Assembly (NCBI GenBank): GCA_033851265.1
Contig: JAWWOW010000005.1
Span: 302,972 to 366,971 of the forward strand
From: Frankiales bacterium
GTDB taxonomy: Bacteria > Actinomycetota > Actinomycetes > JAWWOW01
DNA: 64,000 nucleotides
Direction: 5' to 3'
Position 1 is the stretch's first letter; every line of letters begins with the position of its first letter. Positions 388 through 55,227 of this stretch are shown piece by piece. A model generated the notes under the pieces. It had not been told where the DNA came from. It made no database searches and saw nothing but the letters and a program-made list of their open reading frames with translations. The translations under genes and the position numbers were made by a program.

Positions 388-1227
388 ATGGACGTCGACC
401 GCGCCATTGATGAGCTCTACGCACTGCCACCCGACGACTTCACGGCAGCGCGCGATGAGCAGGCCGCCCTGGCCCGCGTGAGTGGTGACGCGACGTCGGC
501 CGCCGCGTTGCGGAAACTACGGCGGCCGAGCCGGAGTGCGTGGTTGGTCAACCAACTGGTGCGCCATCGTGGTGACGCGGTTGACCAGCTGCTCGACCTC
601 GGATCGGCGCTTCGCGATGCACAGAAGTCGTTGGCGGGAGACGACTTGCGTCGGTTGTCAGCACAACGCAGCGCCGTGGTCTCTGCTCTCGCACGCGATG
701 CGCGTCAGCTGGCCGAGGAGCTCGGTCAACCGGTCAACGACGCTATTGCACGCGAGGTTGAGACGACACTCGACGCTGCCCTTGCTGATCCGGCGGCTGC
801 GGAGCAGGTGCGCAGTGGTCGACTGACGACGTCGCTGCAACACAGCGGCTTTGGCACTGGCGCTGACGAGATCGCGTCTCGTCGACCGGCGAAGAAGCCG
901 GTAGGCAAGTCCGACGCGCCCGCCGACGACGGAGCCGAGGCGAAAAAGGCGCTAAGCGTGGCGCGTGCTGAGACGCAGGAGGCGGAGAAGCGCGAACGCG
1001 CGGAAGAGGCGAACCTCGCTGCTGCGTCGGCACGGCGGGAAAAAACGGTACGCCGCGTTGCGGGACTCGAAGAGGATCTCGCGCACGCGCGTCAGGAAGA
1101 TGCAGCGGCGGCTGACGACGTCAGGTCGGCGCACCGCCGGCGCGACGCAGCGACCAAATCGTTGGACGCCGCGCGCCAGAAAGAGGCGCGCGCAAAGGAG
1201 AGGCTGGACAAGGGGGTGAAACGCTAA
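388..1227 (+). CDS. Conserved hypothetical protein, Ala/Arg/Glu-rich coiled-coil C-terminus
   Basis: 279-aa ORF with protein-like N-terminal half (MDVDRAIDELYALPPDDFTAARDEQ...). C-terminal half is low complexity. Divergent from the cupin gene with a 45-bp spacer. Its 3' end overlaps the TetR stop by 4 nt. Confidence 0.55.
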   Translation: MDVDRAIDELYALPPDDFTAARDEQAALARVSGDATSAAALRKLRRPSRSAWLVNQLVRHRGDAVDQLLDLGSALRDAQKSLAGDDLRRLSAQRSAVVSALARDARQLAEELGQPVNDAIAREVETTLDAALADPAAAEQVRSGRLTTSLQHSGFGTGADEIASRRPAKKPVGKSDAPADDGAEAKKALSVARAETQEAEKRERAEEANLAAASARREKTVRRVAGLEEDLAHARQEDAAAADDVRSAHRRRDAATKSLDAARQKEARAKERLDKGVKR

Positions 1228-1820
1228 ACCGCTCTCGGCGTGAGTACCCGTCGCTCCAAAGTCACGCCCGCGACAAGGATCGCCAGCATCTGCCGGAAGC
1301 TTTCCTCGGCATCTTTGTTGCGGAAGGACCCGGCCGCTTCGAGAAGCACGAAGCCGTGGATACCCGAGCGCACCGCCCTGCCGAAGTGTTTGGCGGTCAC
1401 CGGATCAAGGCCCCAGGACGCCACGATCGCATTGAAGGGCTCGAGGGCTCGGAGGTACACCTTGCGCAGCTCGCTGTGGACCGGCAGCGGTGGCTGCATC
1501 GTCAGCTCGTAGCGCCCCGGGTACCTGCGGGCGTAGCCCCGATAGGCCTCCGCAAATGCGACCAGGGCGTCCTCGCCGCTGCGACCCATGACGGAGCCGC
1601 GCAGCACCTCACCAAGGTCGGCGACTGCGAACAAGCAGAGCGCACGGCGCAGGTCGGCCATGCCATCGACGTGGACGTAGAGCGATGGCGCACGAACGCC
1701 GACCTCTTTCGCGACCCGCGCAAGACTCAGGGCAGGGACGCCTTCGTAATCGATGATCGCCACTGCAGCGGCCACGACCGCTTCGCGATCGAGCCCTACC
1801 CGCGGCGCCATGACATTCAT
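1224..1820 (-). CDS. TetR/AcrR family transcriptional regulator
   Basis: 198 aa. N-terminal HTH LSLARVAKEVGVRAPSLYVHV is typical of TetR_N. Divergently oriented to the ABC transporter operon. Confidence 0.85.
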   Translation of the reverse strand: MNVMAPRVGLDREAVVAAAVAIIDYEGVPALSLARVAKEVGVRAPSLYVHVDGMADLRRALCLFAVADLGEVLRGSVMGRSGEDALVAFAEAYRGYARRYPGRYELTMQPPLPVHSELRKVYLRALEPFNAIVASWGLDPVTAKHFGRAVRSGIHGFVLLEAAGSFRNKDAEESFRQMLAILVAGVTLERRVLTPRAV

Positions 1821-1955
1821 ATGTATCAGTGCGCGTCGGCACTTGTCTAAGGACGTTAGGCACCTGCCTTGTGCGGCTCGGTGTCTGGATCTAACGTCTC
1901 GTCAGATTTCGAGGGTGAGCACGGTCATCCAGTGGGACGCGTTGTGGAGGCCAGC
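1821..1955. promoter_or_regulatory. Divergent TetR/ABC-operon control region with inverted repeat
   Basis: gacgttag (1852-1859) and ctaacgtc (1891-1898) form an 8-bp inverted repeat with a 31-nt spacer. GGAGG RBS at 1945-1949. An ~85%-identical copy of this region recurs at 3448-3604 upstream of the second SBP gene. Confidence 0.3.
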
Positions 1956-3422
1956 ATGCGGGTCCGCAGCACACCTCTTGTTGGCGCGTTGATGGTCCTC
2001 GTGGTGCTCGTCGGTGCCTGCGGCAACCGCGCCCCCGACACACTCAAGTCGCAAGCTCGAGCGGGCGCTATCAACGGCAGTGACGGCAACGGCAGCGGGA
2101 CAGGAAATGGCACCGGAGCAGGGACGGGAAGCGGAGCCGGGACGGGCACCGCTGCCGGGACCGGGACGGGTGCCGGAACCGGAATGGGAACGGGCAACGG
2201 GACTGGGACTGGGACTGGAACCGCAACGGGCACCCGCTCCGGTGGCGGGACCAGCAAATGCAGCAGCAGTGGTGACAAGGGCCAGTCCGGCAACACGATG
2301 ACGGTTGGCTTGGTCGCCGACACCACGGGGCCCGTGTCCGGGGTATTCCAGGGTGCGGTGCAAGGTGCGCAGGCGTACGCGGCGTACGTCAACTCCACGT
2401 TCGGTGGCATCTGCGGCATGCAGGTCGTCGTCAAAGCGGCCGACAGCAAGACCAACTGCCAGGGCAACCAGGCGGCAACACAGGACCTGGTCGGGAAGGT
2501 ATTCGCCTTCGTCGGCTCGTTCTCGGTCTATGACAACTGCGGAGCCAAGATCCTGAAGAACTACCCGGATGTCGCCGACGTCCATCGAGCGCTCGACCCC
2601 GCGGCGCAGATCCCAACGAACTTCAGCATTGAGGCGGGCCGGCTGGGCTACGCCAGCGGAATGTTCGAGTACTACGCGAAGAAGTTCCCCGGCCAGATCA
2701 AGGCCGTCGGCACGCTCTCGACCGATGTCCCCGCAGCGGCCGCTTCCCAACGGGCGTTTGTCAACGTGGCGAAGAAGTCGGGTTGGAACTTCGTCTACCA
2801 ACGGGGTGTGGCGGCGACCGAGACCGACTTCACCAGCGACTTCGTCAAGATGTGCAAGCAGAAGGGCGTAAAGGTCTTCTACACATCCGCAACCACCGCG
2901 TCGAACGCCGCTGCAATGGTCAACAACGAGAAGGCCGCCGGCTGCCCAGACAGCCTGATCAACATCATCTCGATCGCCTATGACCAAGCGTTTATCAAGG
3001 CGATGGGGAGCAACGTCAGAGCGGCTGACGGCATGCTCGGTTGGAACGAGTTCGCGCTGTTCTTCAACCAAGAGGAGGCGCGCAACAGCGCGGAGGTCGC
3101 GCTCTTCCAGCAGTGGATGGCGCGGGTCTATCCCGGCCGAACACTCGACCTGTTCGCACTGTTCTCCTGGGAGAGCATGCGGCTGTTCCAGGACGGGATG
3201 GAAAAGACCGCCCCGCAGGCGAAACGCCAGGATCTCGTGGCGGCACTGCGAACGATCACGAAGTTCAACGGTCGCGGGTCGCTCGCGCCCATCAATCCGA
3301 GCTCCAGAACCGTTGGGCCGACGTGTTACGTCCTCTGGGAGCTGCAGAACGGCGTCTACCGACGCGTCGACACGCCGGCAAAGGGCTACCGCTGCGATGG
3401 CCACTACGAGTACGCGTCCTGA
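1956..3422 (+). CDS. ABC transporter substrate-binding lipoprotein, branched-chain amino acid (Leu/Ile/Val)-binding family (periplasmic binding protein type I)
   Basis: ATG at 1956 is in frame with track ORF 1869..3422. Signal peptide plus lipobox [22 protein letters not shown]. About 60-aa G/T/A/S/N linker, then a PBP1-like domain ([15 protein letters not shown]...). About 80% identical to the downstream paralog. Confidence 0.85.
2077..2256 (+). repeat. Coding low-complexity Gly/Thr/Ala/Ser tract (degenerate GGNACN-type repeats)
   Basis: Encodes [60 protein letters not shown], directly after the lipobox Cys. Confidence 0.8.
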
Positions 3423-3604
3423 GGACGACCCGTAGGACCGTGTCTAAGGGCGTTAGGCACCTGCCTTGTGCGGTTCGATGTGTCGTTCTAACGTCTCGTC
3501 AGGTTTTGATGTTGGGGTCGCTTGAACGGGCAGGACCGGCGGCTCACGACGTCGAAGTTGGGGTGAACACGCCCCACCCAGCGGGACGCGTTGTGGAGGC
3601 CAGC

Positions 3605-5074
3605 ATGCGGGTCCGGGTCATCCCTCTTGTCTGTGCGTTGATGGGCCTAGTGGTGATGATCGGGGCCTGCGGCAACCGCGCTCCCGACACCCTCAAGGCA
3701 CAAGCCCGCGAGGGCGCCATCAATGGTGGCGGTGGTACGGGCAGCGGCACCGGTACGGGTACCGGGACCGGGACCGGTACGGGCACCGGCACTGGTACCG
3801 GCACTGGGACGGGGACCGGGACGGGGACGGGCACCGGGACGGGGACTGGCACTGGAACCGGCACAGGAACCGGGACGGGTCCTAATGGTGGCCCGGGCGG
3901 TGCTAACAAGTGCAGCAGCAGCGGTGACAAAGGTCAGTCCGGCACGAGCATGACCGTGGGGCTGGTCGCCGACCTGACCGGCCCCGTCTCCGGCTTGTTC
4001 CAAGGCGCGGTTGAAGGCGCGCAAGCATTTGCGGCGTACGCCAACTCCACCCTCGGTGGGATCTGCGGGATGCAGGTCAACGTCAAGGCAACCGACAGTC
4101 GCACGAACTGCCAGGGCAACCAGACCGCTACGCAGGACCTTGTCAACAAGGTGTTCGCCTTTGCCGGCTCGTTCTCGCTGTATGACAACTGCGGCGCGAA
4201 GATCCTGAAGAACTACCCCGACATAGCCGATGTGCATCGCGCTCTGGACCCAGCCGCTCGGATCTCGACCAACTTCAGCATCCAAGCGGGCAAGCTCGGC
4301 TACGCGACCGGCATGTTCGCGTACTACGCGAAGAAGTTCCCGGAACAGGTCAAGCATGTCGGCACGATCTACGGCGACATCCCGGCATCGGCCGCATCCC
4401 AGCGCGCGTTCGTCAAGGCGACGGAGTCGGTGGGGTGGAAGTACGTGTACAGCCGCGGCGCGGCTGCCACCGAGACTGACTTCACGAGCGACTTCGTCAA
4501 AATGTGCAAGCAGAAGGGGGTCCAGCTCTTCTTCTCGTCGACGACGACGGCGTCGAATGCTGCGGCCATGATCAACAATGAGAAGGCAGCCGGCTGCCCA
4601 CCGTCGCTGATCAACATCATCCCCATCGCGTACGACCAGAGCTTCCTCAAGGCGCTGGGAGGCAACGTCGCGGCTGCCAATGGTCTGCTCGGATCGAACG
4701 AGTTCGCACTCTTCTTCAATCCGGAAGAGGCACGGAACAACGCCGAGGTCGCGCTCTTCCAGCAGTGGATGGCTCGCGTGTACCCCGGCAAGCCGCTCGA
4801 TCTCTTCGCGCTGTTCTCGTGGGCGGATATGCGCCTCTTCCAACAGGGGATGGAGAAGACGGCTCCGAAGGCGAAACGCAAGGATCTCGTGGCTGCACTG
4901 CGAACAATCACGAAATTCGACGATCACGGCGCAATGGCACCGATCAACCCCAACTCTCAATCCGTCGGCCCGACGTGTTACGTGCTCTGGGAGTTGCAGA
5001 ACGGCGTGTACCGCCGCGTCGACACTCCGGCCAAGGGCTATCGCTGCGACGGCACCTACGTGTACGCGGACTGA
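3605..5074 (+). CDS. ABC transporter substrate-binding lipoprotein, paralog of 1956..3422
   Basis: ATG at 3605 is in frame with track ORF 3041..5074. [22 protein letters not shown] signal/lipobox, a (GT)~25 linker, then a PBP1-like domain with long identical blocks to the upstream paralog ([56 protein letters not shown]). Confidence 0.85.
3724..3906 (+). repeat. Near-perfect hexanucleotide (GGN ACN)n tract encoding (Gly-Thr)n tether
   Basis: ggcaccggtacgggtaccgggaccgggaccggtacgggc... encodes [60 protein letters not shown]. Confidence 0.8.
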
Positions 5075-5089
5075 GGCCGAGGCTGAGCC

Positions 5090-7039
5090 ATGGAGATCTT
5101 TCTCGTCTACACCATCCTGGGGATTGTCACGGGCTGCGTGTATGCGATCACGGCGACTGGCCTGGTGGTCACCTACACCACGACCGGCATCTTCAACTTC
5201 GGCCATGGCGCGATCAGCATGTTCGCTGCTTATACGTACTGGCAGCTGACCCAAGCCTGGAACATCCCGCAGCCAATCGCCCTGATCCTGGTGCTGTTCA
5301 TCCTTGCTCCCGCGTTCGGCGTCGTCATCGAACGCGTGCTCATGCGACCGATGTACGGCGCACCTGTCGACCTGACCCTGGTCGTGACCCTTGGGCTGCT
5401 GCTGACATTGCTCGGTTTGGCTTTTTGGGCCTGGGACCCGCAGGTCACGCGGCTACCTGTTGACTTCTTCAACCGCCGCGAGTTTCACGTCGGCTTTCTT
5501 GCGGTGTCCTACACGAAGGTCGTCACGGTCATCGTGGCCATCGCGATCGCGATCGGCCTGAAGGTGTTCTTCTCGCGCACGCGCACAGGTATCGCGATGC
5601 GTGCGGTCGTTGACAACCCGGACCTGGTGGCGATGGCCGGCGGTCGCCCGTACCGGATCCAGCAACTGTCCTGGGCTCTCGGATGTTCGCTGGCGGCAAT
5701 CGCCGGCATTCTCATCGCCCCGCTCACTCAAAACGTGCTGGACATCAACACCCTCACCCTGAACGTCATCAACGGATACGCCGCAGCAATGATCGGCCGG
5801 CTGCGAAACCTGCCCGCAACCGTTGCTGGTGCCATCGGAATTGGGTTGCTAACGCAGTACACAGTCGAGTTTGCGCCCTCAGGACAGTTCTGGAACAAGG
5901 CGTACCAGATCATTCCGATGGTCGTGTTGTTCATCGCACTGATTCTGTTGCCGCAAGACCGACTCCGCTCCGGATCGCTCGCCGCACCAGTTGCCCCGAA
6001 GCCGGCGGGACTGCGCTCGTCCGTGGTGTGGGCCGTCATCCTCGTCGTCGCGACAATCGTGATCTCCGGCCACTTGTCGCTGTCAAACCTGCAATCCGGC
6101 AGCCAAGGCTTTGCTCTGGCTTTTGTACTGCTCTCGTTAGTCGTGCTCACCGGGTATAGCGGCTTGCCGTCTCTCTGCGCGATGACGTTCGTGGGTCTAG
6201 GTGCCTACGCCGTCGGTCACTACACCGCACATGGATCACTCCTGGGCGGACTGCTCGGAGTCTTGCTCGCGATGGCCGTGGGCGTCCTGGTGGCGTTGCC
6301 GACATTGCGGCTCCGTGGGCTCTATCTTGCGCTCGCCACACTCGCCTTCGGTCAGGCGATGTACACCGTGTTCTTCGTCGGGTATCTCAGCAAGGGAACT
6401 GGCACCGGCGTCGGCTTGGACATCGAACGACCGAGTGTGTTCGGAATCTCGACCAGTTCCAACCGCGCATTCCTCATCTTCACTGCGGCCGTCTTCGCAA
6501 TTGCGTCGATCGGCGTCCTCGCCTTGCGGCGGGGTCCGTACGGCCGCCGCATGGCCGCGTTGAATGACTCGCCCGCTGCGTGCGCGACGCTAGGCGTCAA
6601 CATCAACTGGACGAAGCTGTCAATCTTCGCGCTCTCAGCCGGTCTAGCCGGCTTTGGCGGGTTGTTGTTCGGCGGTGTCACACAACTTGTCACGGACACT
6701 GACTTCTATCTATTCCAGAGCCTCATCATCTTGCTACTTGTGCGCATCGGTGGCATCAATACCGTGAGCGGGGCGTTTCTCGGTGCGATGTTCTTTGCTG
6801 CGTTCCCGATCATTCAGACGCATGTCGCCGGGGTCGCAAACCTGCAGTACATCCTGACCGGCGTGGGTGCCATCGCGTTGGCGCGCGACCCCAACGGACT
6901 GGGTCGACGGGTTGCAGAACTCTGCGAATGGGCGCGCAACCTCGTGTCGCGAGAGCGGTCGAAGCCAAAACCGGTGTCGAGCGACAGAGTTCTCGACTAT
7001 CTGCCGGAGGAGGAGAGCCTTGCCACCGCCGGCCACTGA
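5090..7039 (+). CDS. Fused branched-chain amino acid-type ABC permease (LivH-like plus LivM-like domains)
   Basis: 649 aa with two successive polytopic permease modules and the characteristic motifs (GLVVTYTTTGIFNFGHGA...; GYSGLPSLCAMTFVGLGAY). Follows the second SBP with a 15-nt gap. Confidence 0.9.
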   Translation: MEIFLVYTILGIVTGCVYAITATGLVVTYTTTGIFNFGHGAISMFAAYTYWQLTQAWNIPQPIALILVLFILAPAFGVVIERVLMRPMYGAPVDLTLVVTLGLLLTLLGLAFWAWDPQVTRLPVDFFNRREFHVGFLAVSYTKVVTVIVAIAIAIGLKVFFSRTRTGIAMRAVVDNPDLVAMAGGRPYRIQQLSWALGCSLAAIAGILIAPLTQNVLDINTLTLNVINGYAAAMIGRLRNLPATVAGAIGIGLLTQYTVEFAPSGQFWNKAYQIIPMVVLFIALILLPQDRLRSGSLAAPVAPKPAGLRSSVVWAVILVVATIVISGHLSLSNLQSGSQGFALAFVLLSLVVLTGYSGLPSLCAMTFVGLGAYAVGHYTAHGSLLGGLLGVLLAMAVGVLVALPTLRLRGLYLALATLAFGQAMYTVFFVGYLSKGTGTGVGLDIERPSVFGISTSSNRAFLIFTAAVFAIASIGVLALRRGPYGRRMAALNDSPAACATLGVNINWTKLSIFALSAGLAGFGGLLFGGVTQLVTDTDFYLFQSLIILLLVRIGGINTVSGAFLGAMFFAAFPIIQTHVAGVANLQYILTGVGAIALARDPNGLGRRVAELCEWARNLVSRERSKPKPVSSDRVLDYLPEEESLATAGH

Positions 7040-7808
7040 AACGTTCGCTAGCACCGAGCCCGTTCTCGAGGTGATCGGCGTCTCCGTGCGTTTCGGTGGG
7101 CTGCAGGCGCTCGACCTGGTCGACCTGACTGCCCTACCCGCCCAGATCACCGGTCTGATCGGCCCGAACGGTGCCGGTAAGACGACTCTCTTCAATGTCA
7201 TCACGGGGCTCGAGCGGCCGACAGCGGGACGCGTCGTGATTGCTGCCAAAGACGTCGGACGGATGTCGCCGTTCCGCCGGGCGCGACTCGGAATCGGTCG
7301 GACCTTCCAGCGGCTCGAGGTTTTCGGCTCGCTGTCCGTGCACGACAACATCCTGGCGGCAGCGGAGTTTCGAAAGGGTTGGGCCCGCGACGGTTCCAAG
7401 CCGAGAGACGTTGCTCGGGAAGTGATCGAGCGCATCGGTCTAGGCGACGTGAGCGACTCGCGTGTGGAGTCGCTGCCGACGGGCCATGCCCGCCTGGTCG
7501 AGCTAGGACGCGCTCTGGCGACGCGTCCGCGACTACTCCTGCTGGACGAGCCCGGCTCCGGTCTGAACTCGGAGGAAACGGAGTCTTTAGGCCACCTGCT
7601 GACCGAGTTGGCCGACGAAGGCACGGCAATCCTGCTCGTCGAGCACGACATGGAACTCGTGATGCGGGTGTGCCACCGCATCTACGTGCTCGACTTCGGC
7701 AAGATCATCTCGACGGGCACTGCTGCCGACGTGCAAGCAGACCCGGCCGTACAAGCGGCGTACCTTGGCACCGATACCTCCCTTACCCCGGAGGGGGAGG
7801 TGGCCTAG
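7020..7808 (+). CDS. livG: ABC transporter ATP-binding protein, LivG-like
   Basis: Walker A GPNGAGKTT, LSGG-like signature and Walker B LLLDEP. Proposed TTG start at 7020 sits after a GGAGG (7007-7011) and overlaps the permease stop by 20 nt. The track ORF 6867..7808 has no internal ATG before the NBD. Confidence 0.8.
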   Translation: MPPPATETFASTEPVLEVIGVSVRFGGLQALDLVDLTALPAQITGLIGPNGAGKTTLFNVITGLERPTAGRVVIAAKDVGRMSPFRRARLGIGRTFQRLEVFGSLSVHDNILAAAEFRKGWARDGSKPRDVAREVIERIGLGDVSDSRVESLPTGHARLVELGRALATRPRLLLLDEPGSGLNSEETESLGHLLTELADEGTAILLVEHDMELVMRVCHRIYVLDFGKIISTGTAADVQADPAVQAAYLGTDTSLTPEGEVA

Positions 7809-8519
7809 GTGACGACAGCAGCGCTAGAGCTCATCGACGTGCGCGCGGGCTACGGCCGTATCGAGGTGCTGCACGGCGTCTCGTTCGCAGTGCCCACCGG
7901 CACGGTGTTCGCTCTTCTCGGACCCAACGGGGGCGGCAAGTCCACGACGATGCAGGTGATCTCCGGCAAGATCCGGCCGACGGCCGGATGTGTGCACATC
8001 GCCGGAACGCACGTCAACGGCGCCAGCCCCGATGGGTTGACGCGTGCCGGGGTGTGCCGGATCCCCGAGGGTCGCGGCATCTTCCCGAACCTCACCGTGA
8101 CCGAGAACCTGCGGATGTGGACGTACGCCGCTGAGCTGTCGTTGCGGGATGTCGAAGAGCGCACGTACGCGCGGTTCCCACGACTTGGTGAACGCCGCCG
8201 GCAGCGGGCGGGCACGTTGTCGGGTGGCGAGCAGCAGATGCTGGCGATGTCACGCGCATTGGTGTCCGAACCCGCATTGCTGTTGCTCGACGAGATTTCG
8301 ATGGGCCTCGCGCCCCTGATCGTTGCCGAGCTCTTTGAGCTCGTCGGTCAGCTTGCACAAGAAGGCATCACCATCTTGTTGGTGGAGCAGTTCGCACATA
8401 CGGCGTTGGCCGTCGCTGACTACGCGGCTGTCATGACGCAGGGCCAGATTGCGGCCGTCGGTGAACCCGGCGATGTCGAGAGCATGGTTTCCGAGGCGTA
8501 CCTGGGAGGTGTCGCATGA
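7809..8519 (+). CDS. livF: ABC transporter ATP-binding protein, LivF-like
   Basis: GTG start immediately after the livG stop. Walker A GPNGGGKST, signature LSGGEQQML and Walker B LLLDE. Confidence 0.9.
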   Translation: MTTAALELIDVRAGYGRIEVLHGVSFAVPTGTVFALLGPNGGGKSTTMQVISGKIRPTAGCVHIAGTHVNGASPDGLTRAGVCRIPEGRGIFPNLTVTENLRMWTYAAELSLRDVEERTYARFPRLGERRRQRAGTLSGGEQQMLAMSRALVSEPALLLLDEISMGLAPLIVAELFELVGQLAQEGITILLVEQFAHTALAVADYAAVMTQGQIAAVGEPGDVESMVSEAYLGGVA

Positions 8520-9871
8520 AGCGACGCATAGCGATGGCGAGCCTTGCTACCGGAGGGGCGCTGTTCGTCACAGGCGGCCTGGGCATGGGTGGTGTGTGGG
8601 CAGCCGACGGGGCCGGCTCGGGCTTTGGCTCGCTCGGTCTGGTTGGTCTCGCGCACTCGGTACGCCTCGTCGGCCTCAACGCCGACGGCAAAGAGGGTGA
8701 AGGCCAGGTGCCCTATAGCGCTGCCACTCTCGCCACCGGCCCATTCGGTCATGCGTTGTCATCGATCGTCTGGCCCGGTGGCACCGCGGGCAACGCTGGA
8801 TCAACGCTTGGGTTGTTGGGCAACCCGGCCTGCGCCGCCGCGTCCAACGTGCATCCGATCCCAGGGTGCCCGCCGCTTCCGGTCGCGCTTTCAGAGAAGT
8901 ACCCAGCTCTCAACGACGATCTGAAGGTCGAGTCGCAGACCAACAGCGGCGACGCCAGTGACAGCATCAACCAGGGTGATGGCGCAGTAGTCATGTCCGC
9001 CACGGCCCTCGAGGACGATGTTCGAGCGGAGTCCTCGGTCGCCGGCACTCGAATCACTGGCGTTGGCGTCTTTGGCCCGAGCAGCGCTGCGGCGCGGACC
9101 CAGCTCACCGGGGCCAAGTCGGCGGTCAGTGACGCGTCGAGCCAGGTCCGTGACGTCGACCTGGCGGCCGGCGTCTTCAAGATCGGTTCGGTGAAATCAG
9201 TGGCGCACGCAGTCACGAATGGGGTGACTTCAAGCGGCACCGGCAGCTCGGTCGTGACGGGCTTCACCATCGCGAAGGTGCCGGTGACGGTCGATGACAA
9301 GGGGATCCACGTCAACGCGACTGGTGGCTCTGCCAAGGCAGCGAATGACGCGGTTAACAAGGCCGTCAAGAACTTCAGCTTCCAGGCCTATTTGACTCAG
9401 CCGACGTCGACCACCAAGGGCGGCGATACGACCTACAACTCGGGCAGCCTCGTCATCGTGATCCTCGATCCGTCGTACCAGTCCGGAGCCAACAACGACG
9501 GGCACGTGCTAGAGATCGGTGGGGCGTCGGTCACTGCTTCGGCGCTACCAGGCTTCGGCGGGCCGCTCCCGCCGTTCGTCTCGATTCCGCCAGTGGGGAC
9601 TACGCCCACCACCACGCTTCCGGGCTTGGGAGCAAGCACGGGCACGGGCACCACCGGCGGATTCGCGCCGGCCCCGAATACGAGCGGACCTAATGGGTCG
9701 GTCCCGCCAGTGCAACTGGCCGGAAAGCCGCTCGGTGAAGTGTTCGGCGGGTTGTCACCGGCGTGGGCCGTCGCAGTGCTGTTCGGGGTGGGCTTCATGG
9801 CGGCCGGCTTCCGCCGCTTACCGGACCGGCTGTTGGAAGACACCGGCGCTAGTTGTCCCTTGGAGGATTGA
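8516..9871 (+). CDS. Exported protein of unknown function with N-terminal signal peptide and C-terminal transmembrane anchor
   Basis: ATGA overlap with livF stop. N-terminal MKRRIAMASLATGGALFVTGGLGMGGVWAADG. C-terminal hydrophobic AWAVAVLFGVGFMAAGF followed by RRLPDRL. Thr/Ser/Gly-rich. Confidence 0.65.
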   Translation: MKRRIAMASLATGGALFVTGGLGMGGVWAADGAGSGFGSLGLVGLAHSVRLVGLNADGKEGEGQVPYSAATLATGPFGHALSSIVWPGGTAGNAGSTLGLLGNPACAAASNVHPIPGCPPLPVALSEKYPALNDDLKVESQTNSGDASDSINQGDGAVVMSATALEDDVRAESSVAGTRITGVGVFGPSSAAARTQLTGAKSAVSDASSQVRDVDLAAGVFKIGSVKSVAHAVTNGVTSSGTGSSVVTGFTIAKVPVTVDDKGIHVNATGGSAKAANDAVNKAVKNFSFQAYLTQPTSTTKGGDTTYNSGSLVIVILDPSYQSGANNDGHVLEIGGASVTASALPGFGGPLPPFVSIPPVGTTPTTTLPGLGASTGTGTTGGFAPAPNTSGPNGSVPPVQLAGKPLGEVFGGLSPAWAVAVLFGVGFMAAGFRRLPDRLLEDTGASCPLED

Positions 9872-10464
9872 TGGCCAGCGAGACACTTGTGACCGGGGGT
9901 ACGGCGGTCAGTCGCCAGCATCGGCTGGCCGACCGCGTCGCGTCGCTTCGCACGCGCGCGAGCACAGGCTCACTCGACCGTTGGCTGCTGTGGATCGGCG
10001 GGGTCCTCCTGCCGCTCGGTGTGATGCTCGTGTTCCTCGGTTGGTGGGGAACGTCGCACACCGTCTTCGTATTCGAGCAGCTGCCTTACGTCGTCTCCGG
10101 GGGCCTGCTCGGGCTGGCGTTCGTCTTTGCCGGCGGGTTCGTGTACTTCGCCTACTGGCAGACGGTCATCGTCCGTGAGCTGCGTACCGAGCGCCACGAA
10201 GTTGTGTCCGCACTCCGCCGTATTCAGTCGACGCTTGAAGGCCAGAGTGGGCTCGCGGGGACCGCCACGCAAGGCGCCACGGCCTCGGCTTCGACGGGAA
10301 CGTTTGTGGCGACACCCACCGGCACGATGTTCCATCGACCCGAATGCCCGGTCGTCGCCCGACGTGAGGACACCACTGAAGTCGACGCGAATAGCACCGA
10401 GCTGTTGCCCTGCGGGATCTGCGATCCGCTGGGAGAAGCGACCGCCGAGGTGCTCGAGCACTAG
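9871..10464 (+). CDS. Small membrane protein (2 TM) with C-terminal Cys cluster
   Basis: ATG at 9871 overlaps the previous stop (TGATG). GGAGG at 9862-9866. Two hydrophobic helices. C-terminal HRPECPVV...LLPCGICD is a possible metal-binding motif. Confidence 0.55.
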   Translation: MASETLVTGGTAVSRQHRLADRVASLRTRASTGSLDRWLLWIGGVLLPLGVMLVFLGWWGTSHTVFVFEQLPYVVSGGLLGLAFVFAGGFVYFAYWQTVIVRELRTERHEVVSALRRIQSTLEGQSGLAGTATQGATASASTGTFVATPTGTMFHRPECPVVARREDTTEVDANSTELLPCGICDPLGEATAEVLEH

Positions 10465-10574
10465 CCAGCGCAGCAGGAGTGCGACCACCCTGCCGCGAAT
10501 ACAACAGCCAACAGTGGCGCCTTCTTTCCTGCGCCGAGATCGCCCGCCCAACCGCGGAAGGCAAGGGCACCCCT

Positions 10575-12152
10575 ATGTACCGCTACGCGCGCCTCGTCCT
10601 GGCTATCGGGACACTCACGACGATCGCCGTGTTGACCCCGATGGCGCGCGGCTCCGGCGGGCCGCAGCTCTCCACCCCGATGGCTTGGGGGACCGTCGAC
10701 TTCGGCGATCGGGTGCAGTACCGGCTGGACGGCGCGGCTTGCGCAGGCACTCCGGTGCACGTGCACATCGGCGGGTCGAGCCGGGTTGACGCTGTCGGTC
10801 CGCTCTCCGGCGCAGTGCGCGACCCACTCGCTCCAGGTTCCTGCATCGGCATCGCGCGGGTCCCGACCGAAGCGGCCGTGCGGGCGAAGGGATGGGCTCC
10901 TGGCGACCGCGTGACCGTGCGCCTGGTCTCGCCGGGCGACGAGGTCGCATTGCGCTATCAACGGGTGGAGGTGGACCAGGGGCGCGGCGCTAAGGGCAAG
11001 CCGAAGGCGGTGACGCCGGCGGTGCGTGACCCCCGCGGCGGTTCACGGGATCAAGCGATGTCGATGTCGACCGGCGACGTGGTCTCGATCGGCCAGGTCG
11101 ACCTGACGAAGATCTACTCGATCTCGTTGCGGGTCTGTCTGACCGAGCCCAAGCCGCACATCACGCCTACTCGGCTCGAGCTGCGCGCAGGTGCGCGCAA
11201 CGCACCGTCGATCATCGGTGTCGTCGACGTAGCCGACGACCTCAACAACGCTCACAAGTCGAACTTCGGCTGGCCGAACTGCTGGCAGACCCAGCCGTGG
11301 CCGATCATCAACAAGGTTCCTGGTCGAGCGCCGGAACTCTTCGTCGCTGTCGACCTCACTGCGATGCCGGTCGAGATCAGCTGGATCGACTTCAACGGCA
11401 CCGGCGCAAAGGTGCCGGACGCACCGGCTACCGATCCTGTGGGTACGCAGCGAATCTTCGACGGGAAGTCGTTCACGGGGTGGACTGCGTCCAGTTGCGC
11501 CATCGACGACGACGGCAGTGTTCGACAGACGCACACGAAGTCGCCGGCCAACTACGCGCCGCTCGTGACAGAGGGCTTTGTCGGCGAGCAAGGCTGCTCG
11601 ATGACCTACACCGCGCGAAAGCTGCACAACGTCGTCATCCGGTTTGCATACCGACTGCAATCCTTCGAGGACAATGGTGCGGTCTACGTCGGTGGGCGTG
11701 AGATCCAGATGCGCGAGGCTGGAGAGTTCCTTACGGGGGGTATCCAGGGCAACACCGTTCCCGACGCCCTGACCGGGTGGGCGATCGACAATCCCCCCAG
11801 CGGCTACCCGGCGCAGCGCATCAAGTCGAACTCGTATCCGGATTGGAATCAGATCGAGGTCGTGCAGATCGGCTCGCGTCACATCGTGCGGATCAATGGC
11901 CGAACCGTCACCGACTGCTCCGACTGTCTGCCCGATCCGGCGCCGTACAACTTCGAGGTGCAAGCACAGCCGAACTTTTCCTATACCTACGGCGTCGGTT
12001 ATCGCATGGACACGGGGCCGACCAATCCCGTCACCGACGATCCTTCGAACTGGGGCAATCTCTCGTTCAAGAACTTCCGCGTCTATGACTGCAAGTCCGC
12101 CACCGATCCAGTCTGCGTCGGTGGCCCGAGTGTGAATGGCCTGCCCCAGTGA
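10575..12152 (+). CDS. Secreted protein with C-terminal DUF1080/concanavalin-like (3-keto-disaccharide hydrolase family) domain, tentative
   Basis: Signal peptide MYRYARLVLAIGTLTTIAVLTPMARG. C-terminal YPDWNQIEVVQIGSRHIVRINGRTVTDC resembles the DUF1080 W-N-x-E-I...G-x-I-x-x-x-L-N-G motif. Start set at the first ATG after an in-frame stretch lacking an RBS. Confidence 0.7.
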   Translation: MYRYARLVLAIGTLTTIAVLTPMARGSGGPQLSTPMAWGTVDFGDRVQYRLDGAACAGTPVHVHIGGSSRVDAVGPLSGAVRDPLAPGSCIGIARVPTEAAVRAKGWAPGDRVTVRLVSPGDEVALRYQRVEVDQGRGAKGKPKAVTPAVRDPRGGSRDQAMSMSTGDVVSIGQVDLTKIYSISLRVCLTEPKPHITPTRLELRAGARNAPSIIGVVDVADDLNNAHKSNFGWPNCWQTQPWPIINKVPGRAPELFVAVDLTAMPVEISWIDFNGTGAKVPDAPATDPVGTQRIFDGKSFTGWTASSCAIDDDGSVRQTHTKSPANYAPLVTEGFVGEQGCSMTYTARKLHNVVIRFAYRLQSFEDNGAVYVGGREIQMREAGEFLTGGIQGNTVPDALTGWAIDNPPSGYPAQRIKSNSYPDWNQIEVVQIGSRHIVRINGRTVTDCSDCLPDPAPYNFEVQAQPNFSYTYGVGYRMDTGPTNPVTDDPSNWGNLSFKNFRVYDCKSATDPVCVGGPSVNGLPQ

Positions 12153-13606
12153 CCGTGGGGGGATTGCGGCGGCGTACCTGGGCGGGCGTCGTCGTGAGCG
12201 GATTGCTCCTGGTCGGCCTTCCAACGGTCGCTCGAAGTGCGGCCACCGCACCGTGCACGCAGTCGATGAACGCCGGTAGTTGGGCGACGTACGGCGAAGA
12301 TCTGCACGGCAGTCAGTACCAGCGCGCGGAGCACACGATCGGGATCACGAACGTCGCAGCACTGAAACGCACCTGGATGACTGGCGATACGGGCTACCAG
12401 TCCCCGCCGCCGATCGTGTCGGGTGGCTGTGTCTTCATCAACACGGGCGGTCACATCGAAGCCCTGTCCCTCGGCACGGGGAGACTCGTCTGGACGTCCC
12501 AAGGCGCGGATACGAGTGGGACCTTTGCCGTCACCGTCGTGGACGGGCGAGTGCATGTCGGGCTCAACAACAACGGCCGCCCGAAAGCCGCGGCCTTCGA
12601 CGTACGCAACGGGCATCTGCTGTGGACGAGCGAGGAGATCTACTTCGGATACACGACGTCGCAGCAGTCCAGCGCGATCGTCTACAACGGCATCCAAGTG
12701 TTGTTCACGACCGGACCAGACTTCGATCCCAAGGCTCGAGAGGGATACGGGCTGATTGACGCGGCGACGGGCTCGGTGATCTACAAGTCCACGACTGTCC
12801 CGGAGGCACAGCTCGCGAAGGGATACGCCGGCGGTGGCGTCTGGGGGACACCGACGGTCGACCCGCGGACGAACTACCTGTACGTCGGCACGTCGAACCC
12901 AGAATCCAAGACTAGAGAGAGCGCGTACGACGACTCCATCATCAAGTTGGATCTTGACCGCAACCGTTCGACCTTCGGGAAGGTCGTCGCGACGTACAAG
13001 GGGTCGCCAGACACTGTCACCGGCTACGACAATCCGGTCTGCCAGAACCTCGGGGATAAGGCGTGGGTCAACGCCGGCATCTACGGCTCGTCACCCACGT
13101 GCGGTCAGCTCGACGTCGACTTCGGTGTCGGTCCGACGCTGTGGCGCAATGCTGCTGGCCGGTTGCTCGGCGCGGCTACCCAGAAGTCTGGATGGCTGCA
13201 TGTGTTCGACGCCACCACGATGCGGCCGGTCTGGAAGAAGCGGCTGTTCGTCAGCATGTCCTTCCTCGGCGGAAACCTTGCTCGCATCGGCACGGACGGC
13301 AAGACGCTCTACGTCGCCGCCAACCCTGGCGTGTTGCACGCTTTCGATGCGAACACGTTCGCGGAGAAGTGGCGTGCGCCACTCACCGGTGTGCCGATGA
13401 AAGGCGGGAACGTCGCCGTGGCCAACGGCGTCGTCTACTACGTGGACGAGCCCGGTCTCAAGGCGTTTGACGCTGCGACGGGGCGGCTGCTGTGGATGTC
13501 CGCACTCACGCCCGGAGCAACGATCGGTAGCGGAGTCGCAATCGCCGGTCACCACGTGGTCGCGAACCATTACGGCACGATCGCGGCGTACCAACTATCC
13601 GGCTGA
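12149..13606 (+). CDS. Secreted PQQ-like repeat beta-propeller protein
   Basis: GTG start overlapping the previous stop (GTGA). Signal peptide. Repeated G-x-hydrophobic...D-x-x-T-G-x-x-x-W blocks (GRLVWTS, GHLLWTS, GRLLWMS) typical of PQQ/BamB-like propellers. Confidence 0.75.
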   Translation: MTVGGLRRRTWAGVVVSGLLLVGLPTVARSAATAPCTQSMNAGSWATYGEDLHGSQYQRAEHTIGITNVAALKRTWMTGDTGYQSPPPIVSGGCVFINTGGHIEALSLGTGRLVWTSQGADTSGTFAVTVVDGRVHVGLNNNGRPKAAAFDVRNGHLLWTSEEIYFGYTTSQQSSAIVYNGIQVLFTTGPDFDPKAREGYGLIDAATGSVIYKSTTVPEAQLAKGYAGGGVWGTPTVDPRTNYLYVGTSNPESKTRESAYDDSIIKLDLDRNRSTFGKVVATYKGSPDTVTGYDNPVCQNLGDKAWVNAGIYGSSPTCGQLDVDFGVGPTLWRNAAGRLLGAATQKSGWLHVFDATTMRPVWKKRLFVSMSFLGGNLARIGTDGKTLYVAANPGVLHAFDANTFAEKWRAPLTGVPMKGGNVAVANGVVYYVDEPGLKAFDAATGRLLWMSALTPGATIGSGVAIAGHHVVANHYGTIAAYQLSG

Positions 13607-14122
13607 GCTCGATACCGCAGGGGATGAAACACCGACACCGCCGCGGGTGTCTGCGCCGTACTGCTCCTTTGCACGGGCGATGTCGAGCGGTCGGATGCTC
13701 TTGGCGGCCGCGATCGTGGCGTCATCGATGAGCGACTTCGGCACCAGCCAGGAGACCTCGAACTCGATGCCGTCCGGGTCCTTGGCGTAGAGCGCCTTCG
13801 TCGTGCCGTGATCGGACGCTCCGACGAGTGCGCCGACGTCGCTAAGGACGCCTTCGATCCGCTCGAGCTCGTTGAGCGTGTCGACCTCCCACGCGAGGTG
13901 ATAGAGCCCGACCGTGCTGCGTCCGGCCGGCGAGTCACCGGCCTGGGCGCCGATCTCGAACAAGACGAGGTCGTGGTCGTTGGTGCTCGCCTCGGCCTGC
14001 AGGAATGCAGCGCCGGGCAAGCTCATGACGGTGCGGAAGCCGAGGGCGTCGCGGTAGAACGCGACGCTGCGCTCGACGTTGCGGACGTAGAGGACGGCGT
14101 GGTTGAGACGGGTGACCGGCAT
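13595..14122 (-). CDS. VOC/glyoxalase-bleomycin resistance family protein
   Basis: Start moved to internal ATG MPVTRLNHAVLYVRNVERSVAFYRDALGF, a canonical VOC N-terminus. The upstream part of the track ORF is Arg/Pro-rich junk. Confidence 0.8.
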   Translation of the reverse strand: MPVTRLNHAVLYVRNVERSVAFYRDALGFRTVMSLPGAAFLQAEASTNDHDLVLFEIGAQAGDSPAGRSTVGLYHLAWEVDTLNELERIEGVLSDVGALVGASDHGTTKALYAKDPDGIEFEVSWLVPKSLIDDATIAAAKSIRPLDIARAKEQYGADTRGGVGVSSPAVSSSAG

Positions 14123-14124
14123 GC

Positions 14125-15237
14125 CTAGACGGTAACCGGTTCGTCCGCGAGGAGGCGACCGAGCTTCGCCAGCTGCCGGGTGCCGCTGCCGAGCGTTAGC
14201 TCGAGTTGCTTTGCCCAGATGTAGTAGCGGTGCAGGGGGTACTCGCGGGAGACCCCCATCCCGCCATGCAGATGAGCCGCAGCGCGCACGATTCGCTGAC
14301 CTGCATCGGAGGCGTAGAACTTCGCGACCGCGACTTCCTTGTCCGCTGGCAGCCCGGCGTCGAGCAGCCACACGGCCTGCAGCGTCGTCAGCCGGATGGT
14401 CTGCGCGTCGATGAAGGCGTCGGCCGCGCGTTGCCCGACCGCCTGGAACAACGCGATCGGCCGCTCGAACTGCTCCCGCGTCTTCGTGTATTCGGCGGTC
14501 AGTTTGACCGCCGCCGCCGCCACGCCGGTGAGGACCGAGCTCACGGCCGCAGTGGCGAACTGCACTGCCGTTGACACGGCAGAGCCGTCGAGGGGGCCGA
14601 CGGCCTCCCCGCGCGCCGCAGCGAACGTCACCAATGCATCGGGTGCATAGACGATCGTGTCTTGTCGTTGCCGCTCGACGCCCGCACCGTTGGCGTCGAC
14701 GAGGAAGAGCCCGGCACCGTCGTCGGTCGAGGCAGAGACCAGCAGCTGGTCGGCGTACAGCCCGCCGGGCACGGTGGTTTTCTCGCCATCGATCACCCAG
14801 CTGTCGCCGTCACGGCGCGCGGTCGTCGTCGGTGCCTGCGGATCGCCGAGTGCTTCGACGTACGCGCCCGACAGGACCGTGGCGCCGCTCGCGACACCGG
14901 GGAGGATGGCGGCCTGCTGCTCCGGCGAGCCGAAGCGGGCAATCGGCATCGCGCCGTAGGCGAGTGTCGGCAGGAGCGGCACCGGCGCCACCGCGCGTCC
15001 GGCTTCCTCTAGCAACAGTGCGAGCTCGAGGAAGCCGAGGCCGAGACCACCGTGCTCTTCGGGGATGCACACGCCGAGCAGACCGGCGTTGGCGAGCTTG
15101 CCCCAGAGCGCACGGTCAAAGCCGGGGGTCTCGGAGTCTTCGACCGCGCGCAGCGACTCCTGCGTGACCTGGTCGTCGAACAACTCCGCGGCGAGACTGC
15201 GGATCGCTTCTTGCTCTTCGCTCAGTGAGAAGTCCAT
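14125..15237 (-). CDS. Acyl-CoA dehydrogenase family protein (possible beta-type partner subunit)
   Basis: Start at MDFSLSEEQEAIR. ACAD N, middle and C-terminal domain features. Immediately downstream of a second ACAD with a 16-nt gap. Confidence 0.9.
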   Translation of the reverse strand: MDFSLSEEQEAIRSLAAELFDDQVTQESLRAVEDSETPGFDRALWGKLANAGLLGVCIPEEHGGLGLGFLELALLLEEAGRAVAPVPLLPTLAYGAMPIARFGSPEQQAAILPGVASGATVLSGAYVEALGDPQAPTTTARRDGDSWVIDGEKTTVPGGLYADQLLVSASTDDGAGLFLVDANGAGVERQRQDTIVYAPDALVTFAAARGEAVGPLDGSAVSTAVQFATAAVSSVLTGVAAAAVKLTAEYTKTREQFERPIALFQAVGQRAADAFIDAQTIRLTTLQAVWLLDAGLPADKEVAVAKFYASDAGQRIVRAAAHLHGGMGVSREYPLHRYYIWAKQLELTLGSGTRQLAKLGRLLADEPVTV

Positions 15238-44757: not shown

Positions 44758-44830
44758 TGCGCCGCCAGGGACTCGAACCCCGAACCCGCTGGTTAAGAGC
44801 CAGCTGCTCTGCCAATTGAGCTAGCGGCGC
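44758..44830 (-). tRNA. tRNA-Lys (anticodon CUU)
   Basis: Reverse-strand cloverleaf. Acceptor GCGCCGC/GCGGCGC. D-arm GCTC-AATTGGCA-GAGC. Anticodon arm GCTGG-CTCTTAA-CCAGC. T-arm CGGGG-TTCGAGT-CCCTG. Discriminator A. Confidence 0.85.
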
Positions 44831-45266
44831 CAGCTGCGCTCGATGTTATCAGCGGAGTCTCCGCCGACCCGAGGTGTTATGCGGTCTCGGTTACCGGCTC
44901 AACGAGTGGTGCAGGAAGCGGCATGACGCGCGGGTGCGGGACGGAGTTCGACGGTCCGGCGACCGCGAGTTGGACGGTTTCAGCAACGTCGCGTGGCTCG
45001 TCGAGCATGCGCTCGTACCGCTCGAGTAGCCGGAGCATGACGAGGAGTACTGCCGGCAGGAGCAGCGAGAGCAGTAACAAGTCGAATTCCTTACCAGGAC
45101 AACGGTTCTGAGCCCGGACACCTTATCCACAACCCTGGCCTAGATCGCCGCAGGACCCGCCCGGGACGCGCCCGCACCCAGCCGGTACGCGGCGTTTGCG
45201 CTCACCTCCTGGTTGACCCGAGATCCGACGGGGCGAAGGATCCTCCCGCCAAGCGAAGGAGGAGGG

Positions 45267-45710
45267 ATGTCCACCATTCATTTGCACCAGTCGACGACCG
45301 CGACCCCCGAGCAGTTCGTCGCCGGGCTTACTGACTTCGGCCCGGGGCGCTCGAAGCTCTTCGGCAACAGTGCCGATGAGTACCTCAAGGTGCATGACCA
45401 AGGCCCGACCCACGCCGACGTTACGGAGGGCTCGGCCGGCATCTGGGAACGCCTGCACTACGACTGGTCCGATCCAAACCGCGTCGTCATGACGACCACC
45501 GACTCCAACCTGTGGGGAGGCGCGTCAGGCCACACCTACACGTTCACGCGACAGCCCGACGGGACGACCGACGTGGACGCCGTCGTCGTACGCGAGGGCA
45601 AGAACATCAAAGGACGGGTGCTCGGGGTCGTGGTCGCGACCATCGGCAAGCGCGTCTTGACAAAGGCGTTCGCCAACACTGTCAAGGCCATCGAAGCCCG
45701 GAACAGTTGA
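45267..45710 (+). CDS. SRPBCC (polyketide cyclase/dehydrase-like) family protein
   Basis: ATG after GAAGGAGGAGGG. 147 aa with SRPBCC-like composition. Confidence 0.75.
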   Translation: MSTIHLHQSTTATPEQFVAGLTDFGPGRSKLFGNSADEYLKVHDQGPTHADVTEGSAGIWERLHYDWSDPNRVVMTTTDSNLWGGASGHTYTFTRQPDGTTDVDAVVVREGKNIKGRVLGVVVATIGKRVLTKAFANTVKAIEARNS

Positions 45711-45723
45711 GCGAAAGAAAACA

Positions 45724-45800
45724 TGGGGTGAGTGACGGGGCTCGAACCCGCGACAACCGGGACCACAACCCGGTGCTCTACCAGCTGAGCTACACCCACC
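45724..45800 (-). tRNA. tRNA-His (anticodon GUG), CCA encoded
   Basis: Reverse-strand. Extra 5' G(-1) pairing with discriminator C. Acceptor GTGGGTG/CACTCAC. Anticodon arm CCGGG-TTGTGGT-CCCGG. T-arm GCGGG-TTCGAGC-CCCGT. 3' CCA present. Confidence 0.85.
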
Positions 45801-45837
45801 ATGGAGTCCGCAGCCGCGGCTACGAACAGGCTCAAGT

Positions 45838-46494: not shown

Positions 46495-46533
46495 CCGCGC
46501 AGCCTACGACGGAATCGGACATCGGCCGCGCAA

Positions 46534-46983: not shown

Positions 46984-47196
46984 GAGACTGGCCTTGCCCT
47001 TCGACCGGAGTTGCTGGGATGTGTCGGTCTTGAGCCCCCCATTTGGACCTGCGTGCATTGGTCTATTCGGCCCAGCAAGAGTCAGTCTTGAGCCCAATGT
47101 CGGATTTCGCAGGCAGTTGTCACCCAAACGGCACATTCCGCTCATGGGCCGGCGCAGGGCTCGTCCCGGTAGCCGGTGCAGTTCGTGAGCCCGAGG

Positions 47197-47592: not shown

Positions 47593-47689
47593 CGCGATTC
47601 CTTCCGGCCAGGTACCTGCCGACCCATCGCGACGTCGACGGGTCAGCCCACGCTCAAAGGTTCGCCAGGTATGGCTTGGCTCCGCGTTG

Positions 47690-53510: not shown

Positions 53511-53542
53511 GGTGGCGGCCGGTTGCGCCGTAGTCTGGATGT

Positions 53543-55227
<1,685 letters not shown>

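Follow-up and report, generated by a model that had tools for sequence, protein, structure and literature searches.

Binding-protein-dependent ATP-binding cassette (ABC) importers are four-part machines built from a binding protein, two membrane domains and two ATPases. The closest described relatives of the system considered here are the LIV-I/HAAT importers (LivJ/K-LivHMGF; TC 3.A.1.4). Our system lies in a stretch of 64,000 nucleotides (nt) from a Frankiales bacterium (assembly GCA_033851265.1, contig JAWWOW010000005.1, positions 302,972 to 366,971 of the forward strand), and this whole stretch, whose coordinates are used throughout, is called the window. The system resembles the LIV-I/HAAT importers in having Peripla_BP_6 substrate-binding proteins (SBPs), a BPD_transp_2 permease and two ATPases, one of them with BCA_ABC_TP_C, and it differs from them in that the two permease halves are fused, the SBP is a lipoprotein on a tether of about 90 amino acids (aa), and two further proteins, here called P1 and P2, are encoded with the transporter. 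Judged from its sequence, the region 1956-10464 is predicted to encode a Liv/HAAT-type ABC importer of six functions, in which the usual parts are joined by two additional membrane proteins.

No Pfam, NCBIfam, PDB or literature record was found for P1, P2 or the six-function operon, and what is new is a HAAT importer with two conserved components that are described by no database family. Our reading as a whole is that P1 and P2 are extra delivery or coupling subunits of this importer, and that the two genes which follow them, P3 and P4, are a separate insertion; we consider this probable on balance. Its architectural part, in which the locus holds two units and P1-P2 are integral to the transporter, is very likely to be correct. 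An initial annotation of the window had described a Liv-type importer extended by four accessory genes, an extension not known for the family. Comparison of gene order reduces the extension to two genes, P1 and P2, and the conservation of this pair bears out the idea that the family has an accessory extension not known before.

Gene order around P1 and P2

A P2 profile, scanned against species-representative genomes (one per species), gave 377 loci. The six-frame open reading frames (ORFs) of the related loci were labelled with P1 and P2 profiles and by phmmer searches with the window proteins; 86 of these loci are distinct, from MAGs of Frankiales, Mycobacteriales and Acidimicrobiia type. The 80 best of the 377 all come from metagenome-assembled genomes (MAGs), classified as Frankiales/Frankiaceae, Mycobacteriales, Acidimicrobiia/Acidimicrobiales, Microthrixaceae or plain Actinomycetota. 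Upstream DNA is long enough to look for P1 in 80 loci, and in 79 of these the P1 gene comes right before P2, with a 4-nt overlap in 42 and a 1-nt overlap in 7; the sole exception looks like a frameshifted long-read contig. The fused permease lies at most 4 kb upstream in every testable locus (64 of 64), with an ATPase domain between permease and pair in 59 of the 64. Gene tables around nine independent homologues show the order permease-ATPase-ATPase-P1-P2, usually with 4-nt overlaps and in differing surroundings. The P1 and P2 genes, which are translationally coupled to each other and to the ATPase gene, occur in the operon of this transporter and nowhere else, across hundreds of uncultured Actinomycetota. 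The gene-order conservation expected by the initial annotation is thus seen for P1-P2, which are kept in every related locus examined, but not for P3-P4, which appear in 0 of 86.

The canonical transporter genes are less fixed than the pair. P1-P2 stand between two ATPase genes in loci L008 and L069, and between an ATPase gene and the binding-protein gene, which here comes after P2, in L011, L014, L037, L079 and L084. The permease is further fused to one ATPase domain in ORFs of about 900-960 aa in L033, L060, L074 and L089, which are of the Acidimicrobiia type, and in L060, L074 and L089 the pair comes after the fused gene. Some Acidimicrobiia have the order SBP-permease-P1-P2 with no adjoining ATPase gene, and a second, unfused Liv system is divergent from it (L075, L080, L081, L086, L088 and L091). 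That the accessory pair stays fixed while the canonical genes are shuffled is strong genomic evidence of shared function, and from it we infer that the transporter has in P1 and P2 either subunits or obligate partners. A more neutral view is that they are hitch-hiking envelope proteins which share the operon without a link to transport, the interaction of P1 and P2 with the transporter being drawn from gene context; this is extremely unlikely, given a co-occurrence of essentially 100% across Actinomycetota orders and classes despite rearrangement, and a pair that can stand in the midst of the ATPase and binding-protein genes.

A few long-read MAG contigs (L005/L068, L045, L056 and L069) have their transporter genes broken up into different frames, probably by assembly frameshifts and not as pseudogenes.

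The features of the window that are used below are as follows.

1224 to 1820, minus strand: TetR-family regulator, divergent (Pfam TetR_N and TetR_C_33)
1956 to 3422, plus strand: SBP1, lipoprotein substrate-binding protein (Peripla_BP_6)
3605 to 5074, plus strand: SBP2, tandem paralogue of SBP1 (Peripla_BP_6)
5090 to 7039, plus strand: fused LivH-LivM-type permease, 649 aa (two BPD_transp_2 stretches)
7020 to 7808, plus strand: ATPase 1, LivG-like (ABC_tran and BCA_ABC_TP_C)
7809 to 8519, plus strand: ATPase 2, LivF-like (ABC_tran)
8516 to 9871, plus strand: P1, new family (signal peptide, predicted beta-rich ectodomain, stalk, transmembrane (TM) helix, tail)
9871 to 10464, plus strand: P2, new family (TM hairpin, cytoplasmic helix and C-terminal zinc ribbon, as predicted)
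10465 to 10574, no strand: untranslated gap of 110 nt between the transporter module and P3-P4
10575 to 12152, plus strand: P3, secreted, first gene of a two-gene cassette (C-terminal DUF1080/3-keto-disaccharide-hydrolase domain)
12149 to 13606, plus strand: P4, secreted PQQ-repeat beta-propeller, second gene of the cassette (PQQ_2 and PQQ)
13595 to 14119, minus strand: glyoxalase-family gene at the right edge of the insertion, which directly follows P2 in the syntenic locus L001

All ten plus-strand ORFs were confirmed as present, in a window with a G+C content of about 65%. The start/stop overlaps that the initial annotation had reported read exactly as it gave them: ATGA at 8516-8519 (ATPase 2 stop and P1 start), TGATG at 9869-9873 (P1 stop and P2 start) and GTGA at 12149-12152 (P3 stop and P4 start). 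Its statement that the four accessory genes are coupled with no break holds for these three overlaps but fails at the 110-nt gap which splits P2 from P3.

The importer parts named in the same annotation (SBPs, fused permease and two ATPases) were all recovered by Pfam. SBP1 and SBP2 match Peripla_BP_6 (PF13458) with E-values of 1.4e-33 and 1.2e-33, the permease matches PF02653 (BPD_transp_2) at E 2.4e-55 in two stretches within its 649 aa, both ATPases match PF00005 (ABC_tran), and PF12399 (BCA_ABC_TP_C) is found in ATPase 1. The parts by which a HAAT importer is recognised, a binding protein, two permease stretches and two ATPases, are therefore all there. No equivalogue model was reached by the transporter, the best being UrtB/UrtC, far under the cut-off. 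The likeliest start of ATPase 1 is the TTG at 7020, which is preceded by GGAGGAGGAG and gives a 20-nt overlap with the permease gene; overlaps of 17-47 nt are seen at this junction in the homologues.

The binding proteins have several features of their own. The SBP1 start (ATG 1956) is preceded by GGAGG, and SBP1 and SBP2 are 79% identical in protein sequence, with an identical 21-nt leader that includes the ribosome-binding site (1935-5074), while most related loci have a single binding-protein gene (L001, L003 and L007-L012). The lipobox is VGAC, and the Peripla_BP_6 domain starts about 94 residues past the lipidated Cys (family median), after a low-complexity spacer rich in Gly, Thr and Ser. 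The SBP1 tether, of about 90 aa, is Gly/Thr-rich. In the SBP2 tether, about 22 GGCACC hexamers in tandem code for a (Gly-Thr)n run (3740-3873), of which SBP1 carries a degenerate version (2085-2234); a similar GT run is found in the L001 orthologue, and the GGCACC repeats could vary in length through slippage. Right after the lipidated Cys and before the tether there is a conserved segment, G-[AS]-R-[LV]-D-x3-R-x2-AA-x3-L (2025-2085 in the window, and the SBPs of L001-L092), which may be a membrane-proximal docking peptide. With a profile of the SBP domain, HAAT binding proteins of solved structure are found (4n03_A at E 1e-24, LivJ/LivK at 1e-11), which a single sequence barely finds; these SBPs are a divergent branch of the HAAT family. 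The 4n03 structure is one that we take to be a fatty-acid-binding protein of Thermomonospora curvata, and this identity was not used as evidence.

A TetR gene on the minus strand is found upstream in L001-L005, L012, L013, L021, L042, L043 and L049, and is kept beside the module only in closer relatives. A scan of 1000-14600 gave no promoter-like sites, and its 9 terminator-like sites against 7.7 expected are at chance level, with none in the P2-P3 gap. The TetR-SBP1, SBP1-SBP2 and P2-P3 intergenic regions contained no inverted repeats, so there is no operator candidate. An Rfam scan for a riboswitch that could name the substrate returned three distant tRNAs and nothing else; these three genes lie inside 3 kb on the minus strand (44758-47763). 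There is also a further ABC-type ATPase ORF at 53534-55225.

The substrate class can be approached from the neighbouring genes, and the TetR gene and the acyl-CoA/beta-oxidation-type neighbourhood of the initial annotation are both supported by Pfam. The window neighbours include two acyl-CoA dehydrogenases, a CoA-transferase, an acyl-CoA synthetase and a P450, and the commonest families downstream of the module, in a census of 126 ORFs, are cyclase, AMP-binding, Zn-ADH, thiolase, CoA-transferase and acyl-CoA dehydrogenase. Homologous loci are surrounded by genes of acyl-CoA catabolism in L001, L003, L011 and L012, of sulfate assimilation in L007 and L010, and of fatty-acid synthesis and wax esters in L008. 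In Rhodopseudomonas palustris the ligands of COG0683 'branched-chain' binding proteins are mostly aromatic, fatty and dicarboxylic acids (PMC3223731). From the gene context we would guess at a hydrophobic organic acid as the class of substrate. The family most frequent directly after P2 is the PF04199 'putative cyclase' (kynurenine-formamidase-like), present in L003, L005 and L012 and in 11 of the 126 downstream ORFs, and the TetR gene of the same subclade repeatedly has F420H2-quinone reductase, NMO and PNPOx genes on its upstream side. This cyclase and the upstream genes of the subclade may be a substrate clue.

P1 and P2 and their possible roles

P1 was described in the initial annotation as a 451-aa, Ser/Thr/Gly-rich protein with a C-terminal anchor, and this is what the sequence gives, with 33.5% Ser+Thr+Gly and a single hydrophobic segment at 409-432. 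The N-terminus is signal-peptide-like (KRR, a hydrophobic stretch, then VWA/AD). It is followed by an ectodomain of about 315 aa (about 31-345), in which Ala, Gly, Ser and Thr make up 47% and aromatics 4.1%, and by a Pro/Gly/Thr-rich stalk of 60 aa, which in the family has a median length of 64 aa (range 53-96) and is rich in Ala, Pro, Gly and Thr. P1 and the binding protein are thus alike in being carried on long flexible tethers. Past the TM helix there is a cytoplasmic tail of about 20 aa (RRLPDR...C447-PL), where R434, L435, P436 and C447 are near-invariant. Mean column identity of the ectodomain is 34-42%, and its most conserved motif is W86-P87-G88...G95 (WPGG..GN.GS), in which W86-P87-G88 is invariant.

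An AlphaFold model of P1 has a mean pLDDT of 65 and a pTM of 0.60, and in its core (31-86 and 136-345) the pLDDT is mostly 80-94. The model is nearly all beta with one helix, and the strands are unusually long at 14-18 residues. Family-averaged hydropathy alternates along most of the strands, which therefore would form a sheet with one hydrophobic face. Taken together, P1 appears to be a type-I membrane protein with a beta-sheet ectodomain, one hydrophobic face and a flexible stalk of about 60 residues.

Only 21 relatives that share words with P1 were found among 5.8 billion proteins. A profile built from these 21 found 1,466 cluster representatives at E<=1e-3 and 828 at E<=1e-10, and nearly all of the matches are full-length (405-475 aa). 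Neither P1 nor 40 diverse relatives gave a Pfam or NCBIfam match, and sequence and profile searches of the PDB gave nothing significant for P1 or P2. A cluster look-up of ten P1 representatives returned metagenome proteins only and no cultured host, and wherever a source is named it is a hypothetical protein from a MAG.

P2 has two hydrophobic segments (37-60 and 71-96) and a C-terminus of the form HRPEC...CGIC. An Arg-rich N-terminal helix (11-31) precedes a hairpin in which the two segments are Gly-rich TM helices joined by a short outer loop, FEQxPY, with invariant F68, Q70 and Y73. The second helix runs on for about 35 residues into the cytoplasm and is followed by a variable linker and a small C-terminal beta domain, in which H155, C159, C181 and C184 are invariant in 30 sequences. 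With four candidate ligands at x3 and x2 spacing, the C-terminus is predicted to be a zinc ribbon. Both termini would lie in the cytoplasm by the positive-inside rule. The initial annotation had all four accessory proteins exported, which suits P1, P3 and P4, but P2 is a membrane hairpin with its conserved domains predicted to be cytoplasmic. The hairpin is the best-conserved element of the pair, and for the P2 hairpin, helix and HCCC ribbon the mean column identity is 56%. There are at least 719 relatives of P2, typically 50-60% identical, and a tblastn search of 72,556 plasmids gave zero matches. The H-x3-C...C-x2-C motif is present in 83 of the 86 loci; among the three exceptions, L073 is cut by the end of its contig, and L005 and L069, which belong to the frame-split long-read contigs, look frameshifted.

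No Pfam or NCBIfam family matches P2. Two candidate families for its C-terminus were rejected after searches with C-terminal fragments of relatives: for the Ada-type zinc domain (PF02805) the best relative reached E 3e-3 and 17.8 bits against a cutoff of 23, and for DUF6233 (PF19746) relatives reached E 4e-4 and 21 bits against 27.6, the window sequence itself matching neither. The P2 C-terminus is like the Ada N-terminal domain and DUF6233 in its spacing, (C/H)-x3-C ... C-x2-C-x-P, and unlike them in that its first ligand is His and the domain is tethered to a membrane hairpin. At the level of sequence this is a resemblance only and not membership. The label 'MnhG', which some P2 relatives carry at JGI, was also rejected, a profile search of the PDB giving 6z16_G at E 4.2 and no Pfam or NCBIfam family matching.

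The extracytoplasmic capture module proposed in the initial annotation is a reasonable reading for P1 only, and we put forward a tentative mechanism of capture and coupling that is built on it. The TM helix and tail of P1 would keep it beside the P2 hairpin, and its stalk would let it extend into the cell wall. The hydrophobic face of the sheet could capture or chaperone a poorly soluble organic-acid ligand, which P1 would hand to the long-tethered binding protein or to the permease. With its cytoplasmic helix and zinc ribbon, P2 would join P1 to the core formed by permease and ATPases. This mechanism is possible, and we would not be surprised to see it replaced. A stronger version is doubtful, in which P1 and P2 are structural subunits that turn a HAAT importer of monoderm Actinomycetota into an envelope-reaching machine for insoluble hydrophobic substrates.

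The main rival to capture and coupling is a role in sensing or gating. Here the P1 ectodomain would sense the substrate or the state of the envelope, and the signal would travel by way of the TM helix and tail of P1 and the P2 hairpin to the cytoplasmic helix and ribbon of P2, which would gate the ATPases, like C-terminal regulatory domains or PhoU in other importers, or bind nucleic acid. Such a role would account for the best-conserved parts of the pair being membrane or cytoplasmic (the P2 hairpin, helix and HCCC ribbon), for the conserved residues of the P1 tail, for the sub-threshold matches of the ribbon to Ada metal-binding domains, and for an ectodomain that is fast-evolving and receptor-like. 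However, no output domain is recognisable apart from the 45-aa ribbon, the Ada and DUF6233 matches stay under their curated cut-offs, and the tight 4-nt coupling to structural genes suggests joint expression and possibly similar amounts. We consider the sensor or regulator unlikely.

Several points weigh against our own reading of the locus. The contact of P1 and P2 with the permease/ATPase core is one that we infer from genomic evidence, and the substrate class is a guess from context. The most conserved motif of P1, WPGG..GN.GS, falls in a low-confidence loop of the model. The conserved P2 zinc ribbon and P1 tail fit a signalling or regulatory role equally well. No terminator was found in the P2-P3 gap, and in this genome P3-P4 could possibly be co-transcribed by read-through.

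The separate P3-P4 pair

The domain guesses made for P3 and P4 in the initial annotation were confirmed by Pfam. Residues 291-454 of P3 match PF06439 with E 2.5e-11 and 44.4 bits against a cutoff of 26.8, and P4 matches PQQ_2 (E 4.9e-21, 75.9 bits) and PQQ (E 6.6e-14, 52 bits), both above their cut-offs. The two thus resemble DUF1080 proteins and PQQ propellers such as quinoprotein dehydrogenases and BamB, and P3 differs from known DUF1080 proteins in its extra Cys-rich N-terminal domain of no family. This domain takes up the N-terminal 260 aa or so (10665-11450) and is conserved, with invariant C56, C90, C188 and C236. From their sequences we would class P3 and P4 as ordinary members of known domain families, plus the novel N-terminal domain. 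P4 was rejected as a member of the curated quinoprotein enzyme subfamilies (TIGR03075 61.7 vs 480, TIGR04528 65 vs 650 and TIGR03074 25 vs 833). PDB sequence and profile searches found no significant solved relatives of P3 or P4. The P4 N-terminus, GGLRRRTWAGVVV (12149-12250), is a possible twin-arginine export signal, and if it is one, folding or cofactor loading would take place in the cytoplasm.

The start of P3 is placed at ATG 10575 because it is preceded at 7 nt by an AAGGG Shine-Dalgarno sequence, because the protein has a signal peptide from Met1 onwards and because the homologues are 524-531 aa long; the alternative GTG (10479) lacks a ribosome-binding site at the proper distance. With P2 ending at 10464, this start leaves the 110-nt gap untranslated and the junction uncoupled.

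The closest long relative of the module, L001, in which P1 is 64% identical, is syntenic on both sides. Upstream it shares a 280-aa protein of no family and then TetR, and downstream glyoxalase, two acyl-CoA dehydrogenases, CoA-transferase III, acyl-CoA synthetase and P450, with only 8 nt between P2 and the glyoxalase gene. Since L001 lacks P3-P4, the window differs from it in two respects, an insertion of 3.1 kb (10465-13606) and the duplication of the binding-protein gene. The inserted segment has slightly lower G+C. Homologues of P3 or P4 were found in none of the 86 related transporter loci, and in the Pfam census of ORFs downstream of the module PQQ and DUF1080 are outside the 25 commonest families; the ORFs of this census were picked by an imprecise GC3-based gene caller, where wrong ORFs simply yield no match.

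P3 has 68 full-length relatives, and a metagenome scan with it gave six loci. A P3 homologue followed at once by a P4 homologue is found in L093 (78% identical) and in L094-L097 with no ABC, P1 or P2 genes nearby, so the two appear to be a separate, portable two-gene unit. The upstream regions of the P3 homologues gave no alignment with the P2-P3 gap of the window. L093 also has, just ahead of its P3 homologue and in divergent orientation, a gene for a second PQQ-repeat protein.

These findings bear on the model of the initial annotation, in which P1-P4 form one line of capture and processing; for example, P4 and P3 might oxidise and cleave a glycosylated lipid, with P1 and P2 feeding in the aglycone. 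The four genes do share one strand, the gap between P2 and P3 holds no terminator-like site, DUF1080 is the 3-keto-disaccharide hydrolase family, and other P3-P4 pairs adjoin acyl-CoA dehydrogenase, luciferase-like and ChsH2-type genes. We nevertheless find a joint line very unlikely, with P3-P4 missing from the transporter loci even where synteny is kept in L001, conserved on their own where there is no transporter, and not translationally coupled to P2, and with P4 far under the cut-offs of all PQQ-enzyme families. There is also a lesson for annotation, in that the DUF1080/PQQ pair should not be transferred as a transporter part.

Relation to known systems

The P1 model finds its structural neighbours in the walls of outer-membrane beta-barrels (TonB-dependent receptors, TamA/BamA, OccK and FadL), followed by Vps13 and LptD. 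A P1 oligomer could accordingly be pictured as a porin or tunnel-like beta conduit through the envelope, a monoderm counterpart of the Mce and Lpt bridges, and that these are the only neighbours of the model and that its long strands are amphipathic would suit such a conduit. The ectodomain is however poor in aromatics and has no aromatic girdles, oligomers cannot show in a monomer model, and an outer membrane is not known from the host lineages, which makes the conduit quite improbable. P1 was rejected as an outer-membrane beta-barrel porin, as the model did not give a closed, globally superposing barrel with aromatic girdles, and as an Mce/MlaD or LptC/OstA lipid-bridge protein, as there was no match to an MCE/OstA profile or fold.

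We thus return to P1 and P2 as delivery or coupling subunits of the importer. The clade that carries them counts over 1,400 sequence clusters and 377 genomes at species level, all from uncultured Actinomycetota of soil, groundwater and sludge. If the two are subunits, they would represent a new architecture for nutrient uptake across the thick Gram-positive wall, and would offer a way to study how hydrophobic organic acids are taken up by abundant uncultured actinobacteria.

In the Mla/Mce and LptB2FGC machines an ABC core is joined by a membrane-anchored, beta-rich extracytoplasmic subunit for hydrophobic cargo and by a small cytoplasmic or membrane partner (MlaD/Mce, MlaB and LptC). These machines may serve as architectural analogies to the importer with P1 and P2. 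In function, the closest analogy for P1 may be found in Corynebacterium diphtheriae, where the wall proteins HtaA, HtaB and ChtA, which have a signal peptide and a C-terminal TM segment, pass haem to the lipoprotein binding protein of HmuTUV (PMC12494546). Unlike P1, the HtaA-type receptors use CR domains, have no P2-like partner and work with HmuUV rather than a HAAT importer. If P1 and P2 do prove to be structural subunits, no HAAT importer before this one would have been shown to depend on additional membrane subunits, and the system would be a functional match for Mce, Lpt and HtaA that is made from unrelated parts.

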